From: a virus
Taxonomy: Duplodnaviria; Heunggongvirae; Uroviricota; Caudoviricetes
Virus record (IMG/VR): IMGVR_UViG_2585427727_000016
Strand: one strand, 5' to 3'
Length of the DNA: 36,583 bases
The stretch's first letter is position 1. Every line of letters starts with the position of its first letter. Position numbers and translations under genes: made by a program. Shown here piece by piece: positions 1,246 to 30,583 of the stretch. Under the pieces are notes generated by a model. That model was given only the letters and a program-made list of their open reading frames with translations. It had not been told where the DNA came from and made no database searches.

Positions 1246-2156
1246 TTAGCCGCATGATTTATACTGTTTCCAGTTACAGGCTTCTTGAAGCGGTTTTAGC
1301 GTGGTTGACAGGCCGTTTAAATTGAAAGTTGCACTTACAGGGCTTTCATTATAAGGGGTTATTTTTGCATACATTTTGTTTGAGTTGGCTAGTTTTCTGA
1401 TGAAGTTAATGTCATTGCCTTTATAAAAAACAGCCTTTGTATCTGTAGATACTAGCCAGTTTCGCTCAACTGCTTTCTGTTTATCAAGGCGATACAGCAT
1501 GCTGGTTTGTTCAAGGCCTAAATATACATCCCAATTAAGAAATACTTCGGTTTTCTTTTCTCGGCAAGCTATAAACAGAGTAGGGGTAACCGCTTCTCCA
1601 AATGGAGTTCTTATATAATCATCACTTTCTAACGATAAAATTACATTTTTCGAATCATCAATTGGCGATGTAGTAATGGATGTGTGCCATTTTCCTGTGT
1701 CTGTGGCTTTCTCTAATTTTGATTTAGATTGCGCAACTTTTTCCTGTGGAAATGGTTTATCGTAGCAGTTTACTCTAGTTTCTTTATCGTTTTCTGCTCG
1801 GCATTTAGATATCTCAGAAAGATTTGGTTGCTGAGCCTCTGTTGTTACTAGCTGTTTCGCTTTAGATTTTGAGCTTACAGGCGGAGTAAATGTTGGAGAA
1901 AAAAACGGTCATAACAAGATAAACGTCTGTCATCATCTTTCTCATCAGGGCATTGATCTCTGCTTTCGAATTTTTCAGCAACTGTCGTTCGAGTCGGTTG
2001 TATTGACTTATCATAACAAGAAAGTCTTTCTTTATTATTTTCTATTGCTCGGCACTGGAGTGATGACTTAAAGTTATTATGCTCAGTTGCTGCGTGAGCA
2101 GGTAGCACACTAATTGATATAAATGATGCACCTATAGAAATAATCATATTTTTCAT
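1246..2156 (-). pseudogene. secreted repeat protein with recurring C-x(n)-RLxCYD motifs, split by a 1-nt frameshift in a homopolymer
   Basis: ORF 1875..2156 has a signal peptide (MKNMIISIGASFISISVLPAHA) and stops just after a run of 7 T on the coding strand (1899..1905); the -1 frame is open with no start codon from 1908 down to 1246 and carries the same motif (RVNCYDK vs RLSCYDK/RLSCYDR). Confidence 0.5.
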
Positions 2157-2160
2157 TTTG

Positions 2161-2493
2161 TTATCCCTTTGGTTTAGTAAGAAATACTAAATTTCCGATA
2201 ATGATATTGCAAATAACCCATAAGCCTCCAATAGCAATTAAACCTAAGCCCGTACCAATAACTGTACCGGCTTTTTCGGCATCGGATGTGGCGTTGTTTA
2301 TTATTTCACCCACCTCTCTTAGCCCAACACAAATCGTGTAGATTATAAAAATATTAAATAATATGAAAAAATACTTAATGAGTTCTCCAAAAAATGAACG
2401 TTTAAGTTTTTTCAGTTGTTTGCCACAAGCAGGGCAAGACAATACTGAATCGATCACCTCTTTCTGGCATTCAGGACATTTGATTAATGCCAT
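2161..2493 (-). CDS. zinc-ribbon membrane protein (N-terminal CxxC...CxxC, two predicted TM helices)
   Basis: MALIKCPECQKEVIDSVLSCPACGK followed by two hydrophobic stretches; start taken at the internal Met; AT-rich; immediately upstream of the frameshifted gene on the same strand. Confidence 0.55.
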   Translation of the reverse strand: MALIKCPECQKEVIDSVLSCPACGKQLKKLKRSFFGELIKYFFILFNIFIIYTICVGLREVGEIINNATSDAEKAGTVIGTGLGLIAIGGLWVICNIIIGNLVFLTKPKG

Positions 2494-3001
2494 ATAATCT
2501 GCCTCCTTTGGCTCTCTACTAGCTGACGTTTGTAACAAAACATTTTGATTTTATCAGACTTTTTATTGATATGTGTCAATTGATTAGCTGGTATAGAGTG
2601 AGACAGGATGCCTTATCGACCTTACTCTGGCAACTGATTGACGGGGGATTGCTCCCCCGTCGCGGTTTCCTTACTGCTTACACTGTAAGAACGCCGCAAA
2701 CTCCGCTCCCCAGAAACTCATCCGTATTTCACACAGCGAACCGTGCAGCATCCAGATGATGAGGATTGCCGTCACGCAGAACGTGATGGCCGTAAGCGAT
2801 TTTTGCGACATAGCACTTGCTCCTTTTCCGGAGAGGCGCTAACCTTTCACTTGTCAAGGTAATGCGGTTAGGGCCTCGGTTAAACAGATATGTTTTCCGG
2901 GGCCTTTCCACATCCGGCCTTCGGGTATTCCCTCCGACCATCAGCCGAAAGGCACCCGCACGTAATCTATCGCTTTTTTGTTACTCCGGCAATTCTGCCT
3001 G

Positions 3002-3262
3002 TTAATTCTGAGGTAAAGGCAAACTCATCTGATTGTTTCCCCTGTGTGAAGCTGGCAGCTCATGCCACGGGATACCTTCTGATGAGTGAACGCCGGAGGC
3101 GTGTTTCGATGTGAATTTATGGAAAGCTTCCAGTGTTGAGAAGCATACGCCGCATTCCAGATTGTTACACTGGTAATACTTTTGCCGCACGGTGTTTGAA
3201 TCATTTTCCGGACGACTGGTGCGGATACGGGCAGATGCGCCACAAAGCGGACAACGGAACAT
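3002..3262 (-). CDS. ogr: late gene transcriptional activator Ogr/Delta (zinc finger)
   Basis: MFRCPLCGASARIRTSR...YYQCNNLECG: CxxC...CxxxxC pattern and N-terminal similarity to P2 Ogr; sits next to D. Confidence 0.85.
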   Translation of the reverse strand: MFRCPLCGASARIRTSRPENDSNTVRQKYYQCNNLECGVCFSTLEAFHKFTSKHASGVHSSEGIPWHELPASHRGNNQMSLPLPQN

Positions 3263-3304
3263 AGCTACCTCCCTTAACGTGGTGCTGCCGCTATTCTAAG
3301 TTGC

Positions 3305-4414
3305 TCACTCTGTTTCCGCTATCCATTCCGGGATTTTTGCCTCAAGCTCAAGCTGCGTGGTAAAGCCGCTGTTATCAATGGTGTGCCCGGCTTTTGCAAT
3401 AATCCAGTCCTGATTATCAATCTCGCTTTTAAATCCTGTTACCGTGCCATGCATTTCGGGGTAGAGTTCTGCACGTCCACGCGCCAGCGTGATGGAGAAT
3501 GATGCGGCTCCGCGTTGTAGTTGCTGCCACTTTGCCGCCGCTGCGCGTCTTGCTGCCTGCTCGTTCTGATAAGTCTTGCGTAACACAAACACATTGCCTT
3601 CCGCGCCTTCCATATAATCACCTTCACGGCTGCTGCTTTTCTCCTTTTTGGGTTTTGGCGGTTTACGGCGTTTCACGCTGACTTTTTTCTTTTTCCCGTA
3701 ATTAAGATCAAGCCAGTAGGCGCGTACCCCCGTATACGCCTCGCGGTCAGCAATGCGGAACTGATGGCGATCGCCGCTGCTGCGTGTAATGGCGAACGAG
3801 GGCAACGGCTGGCCCTGTGCGTTCACGCCACCACCTGGCATGATGAATAACAGATTGCCGCTTTTTACCGTGGTGATTGCACCCAGCATTTCCGCCATGC
3901 GCGTAAGGAAGGACATGTCGCTTTCTTCGGTCTGGTCGGCGTGGTCGATTTCGATATCCATCAGCATTTCGCTGATTTGCGGTTTCAGACCATACCGATG
4001 AGCGATGGCGGATACCACACGCTCAACGGTCACATCATGCCAGGACACCTCACGTTTAACGTTAAATTCATCCCGAAAATCTGCGCTTCTGGCTGAAACA
4101 GTCAGCCTGTCCGGCGGTCCTTCGTGAGCGATTTCATCAACAATGTAAGTGCCTTTTTCTGTCAGCGGTTCTCCCTTCCAGCCAATGAGAACCGTCAGGC
4201 GCGCGCCCCGTGGCGGTAGCTGCAACTGACCATCCGCATCATCCAGCGTGATGGTGAGCTGGTCCGCCTCAAATCCCCGGTTGTCGGTCAGTGACAGGCT
4301 CATCAGGCGCTCTGCCACGCCTGACAGCGTTTTACCCTCCGCGAGAATATCAAAATCCGGCATTTTTACGGGGTCTGTGCCCTGACTGAGCAATTGCATG
4401 GTGGTGTCGGTCAT
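3305..4414 (-). CDS. D: tail protein D (late control gene D)
   Basis: about 370 aa from the internal Met with GGAGG RBS (ORF track extends to 4546); basic KKKKVSVKRRKPPKPKK stretch; position next to ogr. Confidence 0.8.
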   Translation of the reverse strand: MTDTTMQLLSQGTDPVKMPDFDILAEGKTLSGVAERLMSLSLTDNRGFEADQLTITLDDADGQLQLPPRGARLTVLIGWKGEPLTEKGTYIVDEIAHEGPPDRLTVSARSADFRDEFNVKREVSWHDVTVERVVSAIAHRYGLKPQISEMLMDIEIDHADQTEESDMSFLTRMAEMLGAITTVKSGNLLFIMPGGGVNAQGQPLPSFAITRSSGDRHQFRIADREAYTGVRAYWLDLNYGKKKKVSVKRRKPPKPKKEKSSSREGDYMEGAEGNVFVLRKTYQNEQAARRAAAAKWQQLQRGAASFSITLARGRAELYPEMHGTVTGFKSEIDNQDWIIAKAGHTIDNSGFTTQLELEAKIPEWIAETE

Positions 4415-4571
4415 CTGCTCCCTCCCTGTGCGGCATGGTCGCATGTGCGTGCGGAGGGGGTTACTGCTTTTTGTTGTCGCCGTGGCGAGAGAACGGCGCA
4501 GGGGTGAGATTACGCGCGTGGTGGGTGATGATTGTTGCCGAATCATTTAACGGATACAAGGGGCTGAAGCT
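4415..4571. promoter_or_regulatory. divergent intergenic region between D and FI (presumed late promoters)
   Basis: 157-bp gap between divergent start codons; no promoter elements verified. Confidence 0.35.
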
Positions 4572-5756
4572 ATGAGTGAAACTCGTTTTCATGGTGCCCG
4601 TGTTACGGAAAATACCGACCTGGTAACAGCGATTAACGATGTTGATTCCAGCGTTATCGGTATCGTGGCAACGGCGGATGATGCGGACGCGAAGCTGTTC
4701 CCGCTGAACAAGCCCACACTGCTGACCCGCGTCAATGACGTGCTGGGAAAATGCGGGACAACGGGGACGCTTTATCGTGCGCTTAAGGCCATCGCAGACC
4801 AGGTGAGTACAAAGGTGATCGTCGTTCGCGTGGCTGAACACAAAGAAGAAGACGGAAAAACGCAGGATCAACTGGTTATCGGTGGTTCTGAATCTGACGG
4901 CAGCTATACGGGGATGTATGCGCTGCTTGTTGCAGAGCAGGATGAAAGCATCGGATACCGTCCGCGTATTCTGGCCGCGCCGGAGCTGGACACGGAGGCG
5001 GTAACAAAATCCCTGTGCGTGATTGCGGGTAAACTGCGCGCGTTTGTGTATGCCTCATGTCACGGCTGTAACACGATGGCTGAGGCGATTACCTACCGCC
5101 AGAAATTCAACGAACGTGAGGTGATGCTCTTATGGCCGGACTTCATCGCCTACAACCCGAAAAGTGGCAAAAACGAAACGTTCCCCGCGCCTGCCTATGC
5201 GTGCGGCCTTCGTGCGTACATTGACCATGAGCAGGGCTGGCACAAATCGCTGTCCAACGTTCCGGTTAAAAATGTGCTGGGGATGTCCAGGCATGTGTTC
5301 TGGTCGTTGCAGGCCGAAGACAGTGATGCCAACAGCCTCAACAACAAAGAAATCACGACCATTATTCGTCGCAACGGGTTCCGCTTCTGGGGCAACCGCA
5401 CACCGGAAACGAACGCCTACATCTTTGAGGTGTATACCCGAACCGCACAGGTGCTGGCTGATTCAATTGCGGAAGCGCAGTTTGAAACCATCGATAGTCC
5501 ACTGACGCCTGCGAACGTGAAGGATGTTATCAGTGCCATCAGGGCAAAACTGGATTCACTGGTTACTGCCGGGAAACTGATTGGGGCGTCGTGCTGGTAT
5601 GACGTGGTGGATAACAGCACCACGGATTTACGTCAGGGGCGTGTGCGTATTCGCTACAAATATACGCCCGTTCCTCCGCTGGAAGACATGGAGCTTTACC
5701 AGTCGTTTACTGATGAATTCTTTGGTCCCGCATTTGCGGTGCTGGGAGGTGCCTGA
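4572..5756 (+). CDS. FI: contractile tail sheath protein FI
   Basis: 394 aa; size and sequence character of P2 FI; followed by overlapping FII start. Confidence 0.9.
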   Translation: MSETRFHGARVTENTDLVTAINDVDSSVIGIVATADDADAKLFPLNKPTLLTRVNDVLGKCGTTGTLYRALKAIADQVSTKVIVVRVAEHKEEDGKTQDQLVIGGSESDGSYTGMYALLVAEQDESIGYRPRILAAPELDTEAVTKSLCVIAGKLRAFVYASCHGCNTMAEAITYRQKFNEREVMLLWPDFIAYNPKSGKNETFPAPAYACGLRAYIDHEQGWHKSLSNVPVKNVLGMSRHVFWSLQAEDSDANSLNNKEITTIIRRNGFRFWGNRTPETNAYIFEVYTRTAQVLADSIAEAQFETIDSPLTPANVKDVISAIRAKLDSLVTAGKLIGASCWYDVVDNSTTDLRQGRVRIRYKYTPVPPLEDMELYQSFTDEFFGPAFAVLGGA

Positions 5757-6268
5757 TGGCTGTACCAAAACATCTTCGCTTTTTTACGCTGTTTGTGGAT
5801 GGTGAAAACGAAGTGGGTAAGGTGACGTCCGTCACCCTGCCTAAACTGACGCGCAAAACCGACAGCTACCGGGGTGGTGGCATGATGGGTGCGGTAAGTA
5901 TTGATCTCGGTCTGGACGACTCCGCGCTTGATGCGAGCTTTGTCATGGGGGGCGCAGTTCGTGAGCTGTTCCTTAAGTATGGCGGCACGATTGACGGCAC
6001 GCTACTGCGTTTTGCGGGTGAATACTACACCGATGCAGAAAGCGACCTGTATGAAGTCGAAATGCGCGGACGCGTGACGGAAATTGATATGGGGGAAGCC
6101 AAACAGGGCGAAGCCACATCACACACTTACGCCATTAAAAACACCTACTACAAGCTGAGTGTTAACGATCGTCCGTTGTGGGAGATTGACCTGCTGAACT
6201 TCATTTACCGGAAGGACGGCAAGGACATTGTGCCCGATCGCATCCGTTCCGCGCTTGGGCTTGGCTGA
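5756..6268 (+). CDS. FII: tail tube protein FII
   Basis: 170 aa; ATG overlaps FI stop; P2 FII-like. Confidence 0.9.
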   Translation: MAVPKHLRFFTLFVDGENEVGKVTSVTLPKLTRKTDSYRGGGMMGAVSIDLGLDDSALDASFVMGGAVRELFLKYGGTIDGTLLRFAGEYYTDAESDLYEVEMRGRVTEIDMGEAKQGEATSHTYAIKNTYYKLSVNDRPLWEIDLLNFIYRKDGKDIVPDRIRSALGLG

Positions 6269-23627: not shown

Positions 23628-24673
23628 TGAGCAGAAAAAATAAAAAAGTGCGTATGAGTTCACGCATTGATCTCGCTGATGCGCTCAGGAAAGAATCGTC
23701 GCTCAGTGCATTCACATTTGATGGTCCTTATCGCCTGACCGGGCATGATTTGCTGGACAATATGTACTGTGCTGATAACGGGCGGTGGTATGAAACCCCG
23801 GTGGACTGGTACGGTCTGGCAAGAGCTGCCCGGCAAACGTCCTGGCATCAGTCTGCGCTTTACTTTAAGCGCAATGTATTGCTCGGTTGCTATATTCCGC
23901 ACCCGCTGCTTTCCCGGCAGGATTTCTCGGCGCTGGCGCTGGACTGGTTTGTGTTCGGTAACGCATTTCTTGAGCTTCGAAGCAATATGCTCGGCGAACC
24001 GCTTAAATTACGGCACGCCCTGGCGAAATACATGCGACGCGGAAGCGATCTTGAATCATGGTGGTATGTTCAGGATGGCAAGGATGCGTTTCAGTTTCGC
24101 CCTGGCAAAGTGTGCCACCTGATGAATCCGGACATTAACCAGGAAATTTACGGCATGCCGGAATATCTTGGCGCATTACTCTCGGCCAGCCTGTCTCATT
24201 CGGCGGACATGTTCAGAAAACTGTATTACGACAATGGATCCCACGCCGGGTGCATCATCTATATCGGTGCAGCGCAGGTAAACCGCGAAAGCATGGACTC
24301 CCTGAAAGAAACGTTACAGGGTGCGCGTGGTGGTGGTGCGTTTAAAAACGTGCTCATCCATGCGCCCAACGGGGGCAAAGAGGGGGTGCAAATTTTGCCG
24401 TTCCAGCAGATCACCGCAAAAGATGAGTTCATGAATGTTAAGGCGGCATCCCGTGATGATGTGCTGGCTGCGCACCGTGTTCCACCGCAACTGATGGGGG
24501 CGATGCCGGGCGAAAAAAGTGCGTTTGGTGATGTGGAGAAGGCCGCGCGGGTTTATGCAATTAACGAGCTGATGCCCGTTATGGAGGCCATGAAGCACAT
24601 CAATGACTGGCTTGGCGAAGAGGTGATCCGTTTTAACTCTTATGCTCTTCTTGATGAAAAAACAGCCCCGTGA
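23627..24673 (+). CDS. Q: portal protein Q
   Basis: 348 aa; start overlaps P stop; P2 Q-like. Confidence 0.9.
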   Translation: MSRKNKKVRMSSRIDLADALRKESSLSAFTFDGPYRLTGHDLLDNMYCADNGRWYETPVDWYGLARAARQTSWHQSALYFKRNVLLGCYIPHPLLSRQDFSALALDWFVFGNAFLELRSNMLGEPLKLRHALAKYMRRGSDLESWWYVQDGKDAFQFRPGKVCHLMNPDINQEIYGMPEYLGALLSASLSHSADMFRKLYYDNGSHAGCIIYIGAAQVNRESMDSLKETLQGARGGGAFKNVLIHAPNGGKEGVQILPFQQITAKDEFMNVKAASRDDVLAAHRVPPQLMGAMPGEKSAFGDVEKAARVYAINELMPVMEAMKHINDWLGEEVIRFNSYALLDEKTAP

Positions 24674-24690
24674 TTGGGGCTGTCCTTTTT
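24663..24690. terminator. bidirectional intrinsic terminator between Q and the convergent orphan gene
   Basis: CAGCCCC-GTGATT-GGGGCTG hairpin flanked by an A-run upstream and a T-run downstream. Confidence 0.7.
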
Positions 24691-25213
24691 ACCAGAGTTG
24701 AACCATTTTCTGGGTGCCGTCAGGCTTGAGATTATCAATTTCAGAGAGAACGTAATATTGAATGGCTTCACAAACGGTGGTGTATGGTGAATTACCTTCT
24801 TTAAGTGGCACGATATTATTATTAACGCGAACCTGTATTTCATCGTTATACATTGCGATCGAAAGAGGAGTATGCACGAAGGCGACTTCGCCAGGTGTGT
24901 CGTCAACCACTGTCTCAATGCTGAAAATCAGTTTTCGCTCATCATTGCCGCCCCTTGCTTTGGGGGTAGCGGCAGGAATCTGAGATAAAGGCATTCTGCG
25001 AAACCCTTCAGTTGTTTCCAGTCCGCATGAAACGTAATGCTGGCGATTACCGTCGCTATCCGTCCATGTCTGTGATGGCAGCTCCAGAGAGATTTCATAA
25101 GCATCAACAATTCCCTGGGCAATTCGTACAAGTGGGGTCAGGTCTTCATTGCGGCGAAAACTCTCCTTTACCTGATCTCGTTTTTCTCGTAACTGCTTGT
25201 AATTAATGACCAT
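24689..25213 (-). CDS. hypothetical protein, hotspot cargo (174 aa)
   Basis: clean ORF with GGAGG RBS 8 nt before ATG at 25213; own promoter region and terminator; no motif recognised. Confidence 0.6.
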   Translation of the reverse strand: MVINYKQLREKRDQVKESFRRNEDLTPLVRIAQGIVDAYEISLELPSQTWTDSDGNRQHYVSCGLETTEGFRRMPLSQIPAATPKARGGNDERKLIFSIETVVDDTPGEVAFVHTPLSIAMYNDEIQVRVNNNIVPLKEGNSPYTTVCEAIQYYVLSEIDNLKPDGTQKMVQLW

Positions 25214-25312
25214 AAAACAGCCTCCATTGATTTCTTTGCTCGTATTTTGCACTTATGAAGTGTGGTCGGCAAGGTGCCGCATCACTGACGCGCTTCGCTT
25301 GTCTGCTGCTTC

Positions 25313-25341
25313 GCCGGGGCATAAAAAATTTATGCCCCGGC
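25313..25341. promoter_or_regulatory. 29-bp near-perfect palindrome (candidate operator) about 100 bp upstream of the 174-aa gene
   Basis: GCCGGGGCATAAA-AAA-TTTATGCCCCGGC read directly. Confidence 0.4.
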
Positions 25342-25741
25342 TCTCCAGCTCCTGTATCAATCAGATAATTTCACGACGCCTTCCAGTTTATCGCCACCAT
25401 CGACGGTCAGACTCTTACGCAATCCCACTACGTTGACTGTATGTTCTCGCTGCCTCAGTGCGATTTTGACGGCCTTACCTTTCACCCCATCAAATCAAAA
25501 GCCCTCACGCCTTTTTCATGCTCAGCGTGAGAAATATGGCCATTCTGTTGTGTCTCTGCGACATCGTTCAGGGAATGCTATTTACCCCCTGAAACGCGGG
25601 CTGTTCCCCCGTCACCTGCGCGTAGAAAAAACGCGTTTTTTGTGCACGTACGGATCCTTGACGGATCCAGCCGCCACGCGGGCCGGAAGTACAAAAAGTC
25701 GTTCAAAAAAATTGTGCAAACTTGTGCACTATCGTGCAAAC

Positions 25742-25766
25742 AAAAAAAAGCGCCTTATCGGCGCTT
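25742..25766 (-). terminator. intrinsic terminator after the 89-aa gene
   Basis: minus-strand hairpin GCGCC-GATAA-GGCGC followed by a run of 8 U. Confidence 0.7.
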
Positions 25767-25774
25767 CAAAAATA

Positions 25775-26044
25775 TCAATTGTTGCTGTGTATTAATCGCC
25801 AACCACGAACATATGCTTCATAAGCATCTCTGTGCCTTACAGTTCCAGCCTGGCTAAACGGAATGTTAGCTAAAACTAAATCATTCTGAGCCATAGCGCG
25901 TCCTTCAAGCGCATCTTTTATGCCTAGCTCAAAAGCACAGGCAGCGCATTTGTGCCGACCTTCTTGTCCTTGATATTCAGGGAGAGACAGAAATGTTGGG
26001 TTATAACGATGAGGGTTCTTGCAAATACCTGTTTTAGCCCGCAC
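25775..26044 (-). CDS. hypothetical protein, hotspot cargo (89 aa, GTG start)
   Basis: ORF with GAGGT RBS before GTG at 26044 and its own terminator; single CAAC motif; function unknown. Confidence 0.45.
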   Translation of the reverse strand: MRAKTGICKNPHRYNPTFLSLPEYQGQEGRHKCAACAFELGIKDALEGRAMAQNDLVLANIPFSQAGTVRHRDAYEAYVRGWRLIHSNN

Positions 26045-26174
26045 TTTATTTACCTCATAGGAAAAATATGCGTGCCTTTACAGAGGTGCGTGTAAGCAAT
26101 AAAATATACGACGCACATTTTGATTTACTTCGGAAGGCACGCATATCAGGTTAAGTGAGTCCGACCGAGTTCTA

Positions 26175-26207
26175 CGCCCCAATAGTTGCTGCTATTGGGG
26201 CGTTTTG
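26175..26207 (+). terminator. strong plus-strand intrinsic terminator with no annotated plus-strand gene upstream
   Basis: 11-bp GC-rich stem CGCCCCAATAG-TTGCTG-CTATTGGGGCG followed by TTTT. Confidence 0.6.
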
Positions 26208-26408
26208 CATGGACAATGCCGCGCAATTATCTTGTCGCTCACAATGCGAACGATCTTACAAAAAGGCACATTACTGTCAAGATAATTGATCGTTTTAATC
26301 GATAGATAATAGACAATCTATTTGTTTAACAGATCGATTATTGAAGTAAGTGCGCCAAATGGAATGATACTGTTTCTATAAATGTGAGCATTTTTCGCGC
26401 AGATGCTT

Positions 26409-26720
26409 TTACTCAGGAAATAACGCCCGGATATTCCCAGCCATCTGGCTGGTTATCTTAGCCACTGGTGCAGACTGTGCTTCAAACTTTTTTGAGCTGA
26501 TTTGTGTCACAGGTAACATCTCATCATCAGCCCATGCGGCCAGTCGGTAAGCCTCTGCCGGATTCGTCTTCAGAAGTGCCAGCCCGGCCAGAAAAGCCAC
26601 GCGTTGGCCGCTTTTGCGGGCTTCTGGTGTAAGGCTGTCCAGCCAGGCGCATGCTTCTCCTTCGTTCTTGACGGCAGCTGGCTTCAGATAGAAACTTATT
26701 CTTCTGGTTGGTGTCGTCAT
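26409..26720 (-). CDS. parR: ParR/StbB-like centromere-binding adaptor
   Basis: 103 aa; RISFYLKP...LDSLTPEARKSGQRVAFLAGLAL resembles the ParR N-terminal ribbon-helix-helix region as I remember it; AAGGAG RBS; 4 nt after the parM stop. Confidence 0.65.
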   Translation of the reverse strand: MTTPTRRISFYLKPAAVKNEGEACAWLDSLTPEARKSGQRVAFLAGLALLKTNPAEAYRLAAWADDEMLPVTQISSKKFEAQSAPVAKITSQMAGNIRALFPE

Positions 26721-26724
26721 TGGT

Positions 26725-27684
26725 TTACTCCTTGTTCATTGCGTACAGCCCATTAACCAGAGCAAAATGTGGCACCCCGTCCGTGATGAAAGTCGCATTA
26801 ACTCCGCAGGCTTCGCGGATAGCGGGTGCCACAATCTCCGCCCCTCCACCGACAACCATCACCCGCCCGTAACCGGAAAAACCCGCCAGCGCGCGGATCA
26901 CTCGTTGTTTCAGTGTCTCCTCCTTTTCACGAATAACCGCCATCAGGCTGTTGTAATGCGCGTCATTGTGAATGTGCTGGCGCAGCCAGGCTTCATCGTG
27001 ACGGTGCTCAATAATGGTATTGGCGATGTGGTGACTGGTACGCATACCGTTAGTGGCCATCACCGACAGCACGGCATCAGCCATCAGGGAAACGCCTACG
27101 TGTGGATCGCAAAACACCTGGCTGATACCTGCCAGCTGCCCCTGAACCTTTGCCACATCCAGCGTGGTTCCGCCCAAATCCACAATCAGCAGGGATTCAA
27201 ACGGACTCATGTCAGCCAGTGCCTTAAAGCCAGCCGGAATGGATTCAGGCATAACCCGCACGTTACGGATAGTGAATGCTTCGCCGTTCTGGTACTCCAC
27301 CGGGCGCATAACGTTCGCTTTTTTGCGGTTGATGTTGGCTATGTCCGGCTGTGCGTTTGTGTCGAAATACTCGCTCAGTGGCAGGGTGACAACCACATCC
27401 ACCTCCTGTGGCGTGATGCCTGATTTGACCAGCGCGTGATGAATGGCAATGACATTCACATCACTGTACTGGTATTGCGTGTCGGTCGTCTGGACAAAGC
27501 GATCGCTGACCGGATCAAAACCATAGCGCACGCCATCAAGCATGTAGTTCGCGGGCTGCGTGCCACCGAACGGCGCAGACCATTCCGACTTGAAGCTGTT
27601 CGGGCTGATGGCGTTGCGGCGTTCGCCGTTCTCAGTCCATGCCAGCTTGATGTTGGTGGAGCCGTCGTCGATACAAATTTTCAT
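26725..27684 (-). CDS. parM: ParM/StbA-family actin-like ATPase
   Basis: 319 aa; MKICIDDGSTNIKLAW...ISPNSFKSEW and YSDVNVIAIHHALVKSGI closely match the ParM N-terminal phosphate-binding motifs I remember from plasmid R1. Confidence 0.8.
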   Translation of the reverse strand: MKICIDDGSTNIKLAWTENGERRNAISPNSFKSEWSAPFGGTQPANYMLDGVRYGFDPVSDRFVQTTDTQYQYSDVNVIAIHHALVKSGITPQEVDVVVTLPLSEYFDTNAQPDIANINRKKANVMRPVEYQNGEAFTIRNVRVMPESIPAGFKALADMSPFESLLIVDLGGTTLDVAKVQGQLAGISQVFCDPHVGVSLMADAVLSVMATNGMRTSHHIANTIIEHRHDEAWLRQHIHNDAHYNSLMAVIREKEETLKQRVIRALAGFSGYGRVMVVGGGAEIVAPAIREACGVNATFITDGVPHFALVNGLYAMNKE

Positions 27685-27713
27685 GTCGCTTTTCCTTATG
27701 TTGATTAATTAAT

Positions 27714-27827
27714 CGTTTACGGGATTCTGAAATCCCGTTTTTGCCTGTTTTTTGCGCGCTTCATATATCGCTGCGCGTTTTTTGCTCATTTACGGGATTC
27801 GTGAGTCCCGTTTCTGTCTGTTTTTTG
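27714..27827. repeat. two tandem hairpin-containing direct repeats of about 40 bp (candidate centromere or terminator-like elements)
   Basis: 27714..27754 and 27787..27827, each ACGGGA(TT)-loop-(AA)TCCCGT followed by T-rich CTGTTTTTTG; first copy intergenic, second inside the 3' end of gene A. Confidence 0.6.
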
Positions 27828-30583
27828 TTTCCACTGGTCAGGCCACCCTGCAGCAGGTCTGCTTTGCGGCTGGCGCGTTCAGTGGTTTCACTGATTCTCT
27901 GTGCGTGCTCTGCGTCGCGGATGGCGCGCAGCATGTCAGAAAGCACGGTAACGGGTGTTTTCATGGTGTTCTGATCCTGCTGAAGTGCGGATGCCAGGCG
28001 TGCGGCGGCTTCGGGGTCTGATGCCCCCAGCTGTGCCAGATAGCTGGCGACCGGGTTATGGCGGATCTCCGTGCTGCTTACGCCGTGATTACGGCTCAGG
28101 TGCTGCCAGAGCTGCGTGATTCGGCTGTCCGTGCGGGTATCCGGTTTGCGTACAATTTCATATCCCTGCGGTGCAATGATGCTGCCGTCAACGTACAGGC
28201 TGCCGCCCCGTAGCAGGTGCTGCGTCTGCTGTTCACCGATATGCAGGCCGAGAGATTCGGCAGACTCCCGCCATTCTTTAGCGAGTAATTCGTGGTTATC
28301 AGGCAAAGGCCGCTGCTGTTTGCGGCTCTGTGTCCAGCTCTGCATTTCATCACTGCTGTTTTTTGCCTGTTTGTCACGAAGCGAACGCATCAGCGCCCGG
28401 CGTTCGTGCCGTTTCAGTGAGCGCATCCATTCGTTCACTTCAACGCCGTCAGGAAGCTGCGGCCACGGTGCTGGCCGTTCTTTCGACTGTTCTGTCCCGC
28501 TGTTGCCTGTTTCCTGTACACGGGGACAGTTATTGCCACGAGTCCAAGGGGCGGCAGGGCCGCCCTGAAGGTCAAAACCATTTTCGCGGGCGCTGTCTTC
28601 CGCTTCCGGTTTACGTCTTACCAGCTTCCAGTTATCCGGATGTGTGCACACACGGGAAGACTCCCCGATGAGTGGTGACCAGATCCCGTAAATCTGTACG
28701 CTCTGTTCGCCGTAATCGTTCAGCTCATCTGCGAGGTCGTAGGCGGTGCGAATCAGGTAGTCTTTGCGTGGAACAAGTACGCCGCCCTGTTTTTCAATGT
28801 AGGAGGCAAAACACCCGGCATCAGCGGCAGCGAGCACTGCATCCATTGCGTCATCCTTCAGCTGTTGCGGGCCTTCCGGGTTGCGTGCCATCTGGCTGGC
28901 AAGGCGGCGCAGTTCACGCCACACCTGACGGGAGGGGATGCCAAAGAACTGGAACTGGCGGACCCGGTGAAGGCGCGCCCAGCCGATGGCGCGCTCCACG
29001 CTCTCGGCCATTGATTTTCCGGTTTCGTGGTCAACGCGTGGCTTGCCCGTTTTCGGGTCGATACCATCCACGGCGCGGCTGTCCAGGTTCTTTCCGATGT
29101 AGGTGGCGATGTAGCTGGTCGGTGTGCCTTTTGAGCCGTCGACGTACTCTGCCTTAAAGCGTGGGGTAATATCATCACCCAGCTCGTGACGATCTTCCTG
29201 AATGGCAATATCGCGGGTGTGGGACACAATGGTGTCGATTTCTTCCGGATGAGCAAAGACCATCATATGCCAGTGCACGGTGCCGTCATGGTGAGGCTCC
29301 ACCGTGCGGATGCCATACCAGCGCAGGCCGTCGCGGTTCAGTTTCTTGCGGACCGCCGCAAAAAACGAGTTAACCAGGTAATCGCTGGAGTCGCGCATAG
29401 TGGCCCCGTTCCATTTGGGATTCGGATGACCGTTCTCCGTTGTTGCGTGGTATTTTGACGGGCAGGTGACAGTCAGAAACACCGCTCTGTCGCCACGGGC
29501 TTCGGCCAGAAGTTCCAGCCCCTTCATGGTGGCCATCATTTCTGCCTTACGGTGAACCGGGTTACTTACTCCCGCGTAATACACTGTCTCAAGATCAATC
29601 GTGAACCCGTCTTCGTTTTCCAGCATGAAACTTTTCAGGAAATCGCGTGTTTTCTCGCGCTGTGCGCGAAACTCGCTTAACGCATCCTGGCTCAGATAGG
29701 GCGATGTTTTTCTGGAAACCAGACAGGCGGCGCGGAGTTGTTCTTCTCTCCACTCGCAACGTAACAGCCACAGTTTGCGTTTCCACCATTCCGTACAGGT
29801 CAGGCGAAGGATTGCGCCCGGCAGCAGCTCCGTGTCTGGTTCGTTCCTCCGGCCTTTGTCTGTTGTCAGTGCGTCATAATGCGGAGGCATGGCGTGCAGG
29901 TGTAACGCCATGCGGGCCAGCATCTGATACGCCTTCAGCGTTACATCCATGGTCAGCTCGCCATCAGTCGCACCAAAGCCATCGCAGAGTTTTTCGAAGG
30001 TGCTGCTGAACATCGCCGCCGTCATGGTGGCCAGCGTCTGTATCTGGTGTTTGTTGAGCTGCGGCAGGTAAAGCAAATCGTCCAGGCGTTCGCGTCCGGC
30101 AAGGGAGCGATAACCCGGTGTCAGCCAGTGTCCGTCAGTGCGATCCAGACGTTCGAATATTTTGCGCAGGGTTCCGCGTGCATAGCGTTCCGCCTGCCAG
30201 CTCTTTTTGCCTTTCCGGCGATCAGCTTCCTGTTTTTTGCGCAGGAAGGAGAGGTGGCGAATAAGCGGATCGCGCAGATAGGACGGCAGCAGGCGCAGCG
30301 AGGCCATGGCTTCATCCACCGCGCCGCGTGCCTGTTTTCTGGCGTCTCCTGCCAGTGTGATGGTTTTGTCCTGTTTTTCCTGTGCGTCCAGGCTTTTATT
30401 AATCAGGTTGCCCAGCGGCGTGGCGGAGAACGCCGCATCAGCCATTTCCTGGCGGCGCTCGTTCTCTACCCGGTAGGCACCCAGCCAGGAGGAAAGCGCG
30501 GATTCAGGAGCGGGGATCCCCGTTCCTTCACGCCCCACTGCGTGGCGCGGTTGTTGCCAGTCCCTGATGTACTCTGCCGTCAT
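27761..30583 (-). CDS. A: replication initiation protein A (rolling-circle HUH endonuclease)
   Basis: 940 aa; HUH-like motif (VHWHMMVF) and catalytic Tyr motif (YIATYIGK) typical of P2-family gpA. Confidence 0.9.
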   Translation of the reverse strand: MTAEYIRDWQQPRHAVGREGTGIPAPESALSSWLGAYRVENERRQEMADAAFSATPLGNLINKSLDAQEKQDKTITLAGDARKQARGAVDEAMASLRLLPSYLRDPLIRHLSFLRKKQEADRRKGKKSWQAERYARGTLRKIFERLDRTDGHWLTPGYRSLAGRERLDDLLYLPQLNKHQIQTLATMTAAMFSSTFEKLCDGFGATDGELTMDVTLKAYQMLARMALHLHAMPPHYDALTTDKGRRNEPDTELLPGAILRLTCTEWWKRKLWLLRCEWREEQLRAACLVSRKTSPYLSQDALSEFRAQREKTRDFLKSFMLENEDGFTIDLETVYYAGVSNPVHRKAEMMATMKGLELLAEARGDRAVFLTVTCPSKYHATTENGHPNPKWNGATMRDSSDYLVNSFFAAVRKKLNRDGLRWYGIRTVEPHHDGTVHWHMMVFAHPEEIDTIVSHTRDIAIQEDRHELGDDITPRFKAEYVDGSKGTPTSYIATYIGKNLDSRAVDGIDPKTGKPRVDHETGKSMAESVERAIGWARLHRVRQFQFFGIPSRQVWRELRRLASQMARNPEGPQQLKDDAMDAVLAAADAGCFASYIEKQGGVLVPRKDYLIRTAYDLADELNDYGEQSVQIYGIWSPLIGESSRVCTHPDNWKLVRRKPEAEDSARENGFDLQGGPAAPWTRGNNCPRVQETGNSGTEQSKERPAPWPQLPDGVEVNEWMRSLKRHERRALMRSLRDKQAKNSSDEMQSWTQSRKQQRPLPDNHELLAKEWRESAESLGLHIGEQQTQHLLRGGSLYVDGSIIAPQGYEIVRKPDTRTDSRITQLWQHLSRNHGVSSTEIRHNPVASYLAQLGASDPEAAARLASALQQDQNTMKTPVTVLSDMLRAIRDAEHAQRISETTERASRKADLLQGGLTSGNKKQTETGLTNPVNEQKTRSDI

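Follow-up and report, generated by a model that had tools for sequence, protein, structure and literature searches.

Here, we describe a 115-bp region of a prophage that is probably parC, the ParR-binding centromere and probable operator of a type II ParMRC partition cassette. The region, which consists of two repeat blocks and the ~31-bp core between them, lies directly upstream of parM-parR, in cis, within a 36,583-nucleotide stretch of viral DNA (IMG/VR record IMGVR_UViG_2585427727_000016; hereafter, the window). The order repeats-parM-parR is canonical for type II systems, the centromeres of which can be either continuous or split (PMC5016525). This assignment, which is made by sequence comparison, would make the site an expected part of a system of known kind, that is, the parC of a known cargo cassette, not itself described in the literature searched. 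The coordinates of all features discussed below are collected in Table 1.

Table 1. Features of the par locus and of the proposed centromere, in window coordinates
Feature	Coordinates	Strand	Remarks
Gene A, P2-type replication endonuclease, 940 aa	27761..30583	-	Phage_GPA 6e-130; last ~22 codons read into the putative parC
Proposed parC (two 42-nt blocks and core)	27713..27827	- (sense strand of parM)	Repeats and A/T-tract phasing
Distal repeat block (copy 2)	27786..27827	no strand	Overlaps gpA codons 919-933; the par cassette begins, on the left, at its outer edge
Palindrome 2	27792..27811	no strand	ACGGGATT-CGTG-AGTCCCGT; most relatives have AATCCCGT as the second arm
Core between blocks	27755..27785	no strand	gpA stop codon, GCGC...GCGC imperfect palindrome, third A/T box
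Proximal repeat block (copy 1)	27713..27754	no strand	Intergenic; ends 29 bp upstream of the parM start codon (ATG)
Palindrome 1	27719..27738	no strand	ACGGGATT-CTGA-AATCCCGT
parM, actin-like segregation ATPase, 319 aa	26725..27684	-	Pfam StbA_N 3.5e-82, ParM C-terminal domain 2.5e-67
parR, ribbon-helix-helix centromere-binding adaptor, 103 aa	26409..26720	-	PF10784 9.8e-24

The host element is a P88-like prophage of the P2 family (Xuanwuvirus, Peduoviridae). Over the tested stretch, the window is identical to the genome of E. coli O166:H15 JNE21-003, in which the prophage is integrated beside pdxB. The early genes are arranged on the minus strand in the order cox ... A, then parM, then parR, and the locus is the gpA-gpQ cargo hotspot, holding an R1-type parM-parR pair. 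In approximately a quarter of P2-like phages, this hotspot, the tin/old locus, is occupied by a putative plasmid partitioning system (Rousset et al. 2022, PMC9122126), and, in agreement with this share, the A-parM junction was detected in 1372 of the 5426 complete E. coli genomes, O157:H7 and ST131 included, at 1532 chromosomal places.

The original prediction placed two copies of a ~40-bp unit, about 73 bp apart, across the end of gene A and the region upstream of parM. A repeat search of the window recovered this pair as two 42-nt direct repeats with 83% identity (35/42) and a start-to-start distance of 73 bp, and the predicted range, 27714-27827, proved correct to within 1 nt. When the surrounding 1 kb was block-shuffled 300 times and the best 42-nt pair no more than 200 bp apart was scored, the mean was 23.8 and the maximum 27 matches of 42, against the 35 observed. 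The stop codon of gene A is located at 27761-27763, so that copy 2 falls within codons 919-933 of 940 (N919-E933) and copy 1 within the 76-bp A-parM spacer, as had been foreseen in assigning one copy to the intergenic region and the other to the last codons of A. Each copy contains a palindrome with 8-bp arms and a 4-nt loop; the second arm of hairpin 2 includes a G-T wobble in the window, in contrast to the perfect AATCCCGT in most relatives. A 25-nt degenerate pattern with up to 3 mismatches matched these two sites only in the 36.6 kb (0 expected), and the 16-nt palindrome core with up to 2 mismatches matched the same two sites only. Tandem Repeats Finder detected no array, and the conservation of the 115-bp repeat region does not exceed that of the coding DNA flanking it.

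In a scan of 596 Gb of genomes, the palindrome was about as frequent as chance predicts for 16 fixed bases. Of the palindrome loci fetched, one only has the A-parM-parR context, with the same 73-bp spacing. This locus (NZ_JBQPOM010000071.1, 2057-6243; L174), labeled Vagococcus sp. WN89Y, encompasses an E. coli-type A-parM-parR segment with 84-97% amino acid identity and both palindromes, and it is possible that the assembly is contaminated or mislabeled.

The two blocks are part of a longer helically phased series. Between the two copies, at 27772-27785, lies a third A/T box, TGCGCGTTTTTTGC, that was overlooked originally. On the sense strand, units ending in AAAC or AAAT are found at offsets 0, 10, 32, 43, 73, 83, and 105, all near multiples of 10.5. 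A model-free Fourier test for A/T-tract phasing, applied to 7292 windows of 126 bp over the 36.6 kb, ranked the segment 27701-27826 first of 7292 for phasing at 10-11 bp, with a peak at 10.25-10.5 bp. The same phasing peak is present in an R1-like parC with 5+5 11-bp iterons (L005) and in the region upstream of the closest plasmid parM, from IncI (L003). The individual ~10-bp iterons in the phage site are atypical in being degenerate and, in part, inverted, and their division into 10-11-bp slots is a parsing made here. Among relatives, the core varies more than the GGGATT/AATCCC arms (for example, GCGATATATG versus CATAAAACATG).

Judging from sequence and profile similarity, the partner proteins are genuine ParM and ParR of the R1/pB171 type. 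ParM matches the R1 ParM structure (1MWK) with E=3.5e-92 and is 52% identical to the nearest plasmid ParMs. A PDB search with the phage ParR as a single sequence produced no match and a profile was needed; the profile that includes the phage ParR matches pB171 ParR (PDB 2JD3) over the full length with E=2.4e-12. All ParR homologues found, with identities between 98% and 42%, are encoded in an A-parM-parR context. Most of their divergence falls in the C-terminal half, and the N-terminal DNA-binding strand, RRISFYLKP, as well as the C-terminal N-I-x-x-x-F-P tail are kept down to 42% identity, the strand being invariant. The repeats, too, remain conserved beside ParR homologues with identity as low as 42%, and the joint conservation of the strand and the repeats is consistent with ParR reading the repeats. 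In a PADLOC search, no defense model was matched by ParM, ParR, or the neighboring ORFs.

The parR gene itself is mosaic. Among relatives, its 3' third (window 26420-26540), in the C-terminal half of the protein, is by far the most variable part of A-parM-parR, with a column variability of 0.09-0.19 compared to ~0.02 elsewhere, and the first ~50 and the last ~8 residues of ParR are conserved; ParM is ~97-98% identical among the phage records checked. Beyond parR, the ~1.2 kb up to the next RefSeq gene (25253-26408) are unannotated and contain an 89-aa ORF on the minus strand (25775-26044), a promoter-like match at 26280-26253, a strong minus-strand terminator at 25767-25747, and a plus-strand promoter-like match at 26077-26105. 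An Rfam search of 24500-28500 in the E-value mode found nothing at the repeats, the sole match being a sub-threshold hit to sar RNA at 26174-26203 (E=0.46).

The borders of the cassette were delineated by aligning prophages with different cargo, the comparison originally proposed for deciding whether the repeat marks the cassette boundary. Copy 2 does mark the cassette edge, from the inside. Homology on the par side begins at 27826-27828, no more than 2 nt from where copy 2 ends on its outer side, and it does so next to three unrelated upstream sequences: the 940-aa A of the window type; L090, with an 877-aa A and an unrelated 153-aa ORF that reads into copy 2 and ends in the same KQTETGFTNPVNEQK tail; and L094 (H171), with a 768-aa A and an unrelated 151-aa ORF that stops 38 bp short of copy 2, so that copy 2 is non-coding there. 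Three prophages that carry the same A gene (~90% identical A protein) and other cargo instead of par (L092, L095, and L096) lose homology to the window at ~27845-27873. No palindrome was found in L095 and L096 even with 3 mismatches allowed; in L092, there is no exact match, and none is present at the junction in the alignments. The right edge of the cassette is the parR stop codon, at 26409, where P88 and several other phages begin to match the window. Taken together, the left junctions, the right edge, and the copy-free variants without par indicate that the mobile unit consists of the repeats, parM, and parR (26409-27827), and nothing else. In the phage collection, all phages with this C-terminus of A also carry parMR, which makes the comparison non-discriminating, and a protein search with the C-terminus of A returned mostly fragments but yielded the key variant without par, P0085.

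The alternative cargo in the prophages without par consists of defense-like pairs in the P2 hotspot, namely, a Dam-type methylase with an AAA_15/AAA_21 ATPase (L092, 994-3554; L095, 4659-7219) and an AAA ATPase with an S8 peptidase (L096, 4594-7964). In another E. coli locus (GCA_002973245.1; L093, 5836-8617), parM is split, a 311-aa ORF being flanked by duplicated StbA_N fragments, and the palindrome is present twice, 1.8 kb apart (5709 and 7500), in what looks like an insertion or duplication disrupting the cassette.

The position of copy 2 at the cassette edge bears on the annotation of gene A. Codons 919-940 of gpA (window 27764-27829) are encoded by the putative centromere block, the corresponding segments being 3880-3953 in L090 and 3998-4066 in L094; in the latter, the copy 2 DNA bears the RefSeq label of a 'DNA replication protein' remnant. 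Given that the same tail is found on the unrelated ORF of L090 and that the DNA is non-coding in L094, the C-terminal ~22 residues of gpA are probably the result of read-through and not a functional part of gpA. Copy 2 would then owe its place inside gene A solely to an upstream ORF that runs on into the cassette. The end of the 940-aa gpA, ~22 codons, would be centromere sequence translated into protein, a point of importance for the annotation of the gene.

Three explanations of the repeats were put forward originally: binding sites for the ParR-like protein, terminators insulating the cassette from antisense transcription, and a duplication scar. The first of these, a putative ParR site, is best supported because the repeats are located upstream of an R1-type parMR, travel with parMR, are absent where the cassette is absent, and have a phased two-block layout. 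Of the terminator proposal, the shape stands and the function is disfavored.

As to the shape, both copies do resemble intrinsic terminators on the plus strand, as noted originally, with both flanking genes on the minus strand: the 8-bp stems have a predicted stability of about -10 kcal/mol and are followed by T-rich tails, TTTTTGCC in copy 1 and the weaker TTCTGTCT in copy 2. Tandem terminators in this orientation could stop antisense transcription across parR-parM from entering gene A, and the plus-strand promoter-like match downstream of parR could feed such transcription, such matches occurring at the chance rate in the scan. We nevertheless consider this function improbable. Among the 48 distinct alleles of the site, none of the 16 stem pairs (0/16) is altered on both sides, as compensatory change would require, and the outer pairs of hairpin 1 are often broken (pair 1 in 20/48 alleles and pair 3 in 11/48), with inner GGGATT/AATCCC invariant or nearly so. 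This pattern, in a set with low divergence, weakly suggests sequence-specific recognition, which it fits better than selection for RNA pairing. Besides the weak tail of hairpin 2, several features argue against a role in termination: no annotated or plausible plus-strand gene ends nearby, the portal operon having its own strong terminator 3 kb away (24662-24683); the T-tracts run on as a 10.5-bp phased series throughout the 115 bp, a feature unnecessary for termination; and the elements are inherited strictly with parMR. The hairpin-plus-T appearance on the plus strand would thus be a by-product of a palindromic protein-binding site flanked by A-tracts.

No minus-strand terminator was found between A and parM, the hairpins lacking T-tracts on that strand, so that transcription from A can read into parM. 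A sigma-70 consensus scan detected no promoter in the site, a result that is uninformative because the scan likewise fails to recognize the promoter region known in the R1-like parC. The literature mentioning CP-933T contained no information on par gene expression.

The palindromes could also serve a protein other than ParR, and 20-bp palindromes are indeed typical of the sites of dimeric regulators. In P2-family phages, the origin of replication is located within gene A, so that part of an A-dependent origin was considered along with operators for another phage or host regulator. Jointly, these options appear quite improbable. The sites are inherited with parMR only, and ParR is the sole DNA-binding protein of the mobile unit. 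The origin was rejected because the prophages without par, with a ~90% identical A protein, lack the palindromes, and A-dependent replication therefore cannot need them.

A duplication scar or recombination site left by insertion of the cassette downstream of A is highly improbable and is not supported by the cassette borders, even though copy 2 lies exactly at the left boundary in three contexts: a scar predicts copies on both sides of the insert and one retained in each empty target site, but both copies are on the same side of parMR, there is none at the right boundary at the parR stop codon, the variants without the cassette hold none, and no recombinase travels with the cassette, a sharp boundary being equally expected if recombinants truncating a functional parC are lost.

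Under the preferred assignment of the repeats and the core as parC, ParR dimers, through their N-terminal ribbon-helix-helix domains, would bind both blocks. The 73-bp spacing corresponds to 7 helical turns, so that both blocks would face the same side of the helix. Binding would probably be centered on the invariant GGGATT-N4-AATCCC palindromes and reach across the phased A-tract turns, of which each block has ~4-5. Once bound, the DNA, itself intrinsically bent, would form the partition complex, in which the conserved C-terminal tails of ParR (N-I-R-A-L-F-P-E) would capture the ends of ParM filaments, and the filaments would push apart sister copies of the extrachromosomal phage genome. The site may double as the operator of parMR, as in R1. 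A bolder reading is that an R1-type ParR here uses a centromere of distinct design, with two 20-bp palindromes seven turns apart, phased A-tracts, possibly no promoter of its own, and a location partly in the 3' end of the replication gene. We regard this as a tentative proposal that is rather unlikely; if it is true, expression of parMR would depend on read-through from the phage early operon, and the pair would serve a P2-like phage that otherwise integrates by segregating those of its copies that replicate or are in the plasmid state.

Maintenance of integrating P2-like phages as plasmids has been suggested by Rousset et al. (PMC9122126). Two of the related loci are associated with plasmids. 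One (NZ_CP148288.1, 1-34461; L218), in one complete assembly of an E. coli strain from a cat, against the 1532 chromosomal places, is a complete P88-like genome (int, C, cox, A, parM, parR, and structural genes) recorded as a 34.5-kb circular non-mobilizable 'plasmid'. It could be either a prophage in the plasmid state or a circle that had been excised and was picked up by sequencing. The other (NZ_CP110658.1, 111744-128700; L006) is a P88-like prophage with the same cassette inside a 272-kb IncHI2 plasmid of Salmonella, showing that a plasmid can carry a second, phage-borne ParMRC locus.

The putative parC would be the cis-acting site of a cassette found in about a quarter of the complete E. 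coli genomes, and no description of this site was found in the literature searched. The minimal 1.4-kb parC-parM-parR unit, with its exact edges, provides a ready construct for testing plasmid maintenance of P2-like phages and also for studying how a centromere made of palindromes, in place of direct repeats, is recognized by an R1-type ParR.

Comparison with known systems places the phage site close to, and partly apart from, the plasmid centromeres. The location is the same as that of the P2-like gpA-gpQ hotspot described in PMC9122126, which names genes only, with no centromere described. In pSK41, every iteron accommodates one ParR dimer, and the ParR superhelix carries the DNA wrapped on its outside (PMC5016525). 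Like the pSK41 parC, the phage site is located upstream of the par operon and has ~10-bp ParR-binding units, which are predicted in the phage; unlike the continuous direct-repeat array of pSK41, it is split and contains inverted arms. In the parC of R1, a 39-bp core with the promoter has five 11-bp iterons on each side; the site is strongly curved, with approximately one ParR dimer bound per iteron and the core unbound (PMC2241845). The phage site differs from this arrangement (5+5 direct 11-bp iterons, a 39-bp core with the promoter, and 159 bp in total) in having two 42-nt units, a ~31-bp core, and a total of 115 bp, with a 20-bp palindrome of inverted arms in each unit and the distal block overlapping the end of the upstream gene; the proteins, too, have diverged, the phage ParR being 26% and ParM ~46-47% identical to the R1-type proteins. 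It resembles R1 parC in being located directly upstream of parM-parR, in the two repeat blocks around a core, in the ~10.5-11 bp helical periodicity of A-rich sense-strand units, and in the cognate PF10784 ParR and R1-like ParM. Finally, like pB171 ParR (2JD3), the phage ParR combines an N-terminal ribbon-helix-helix with a conserved C-terminal ParM-binding tail (PMC5016525).
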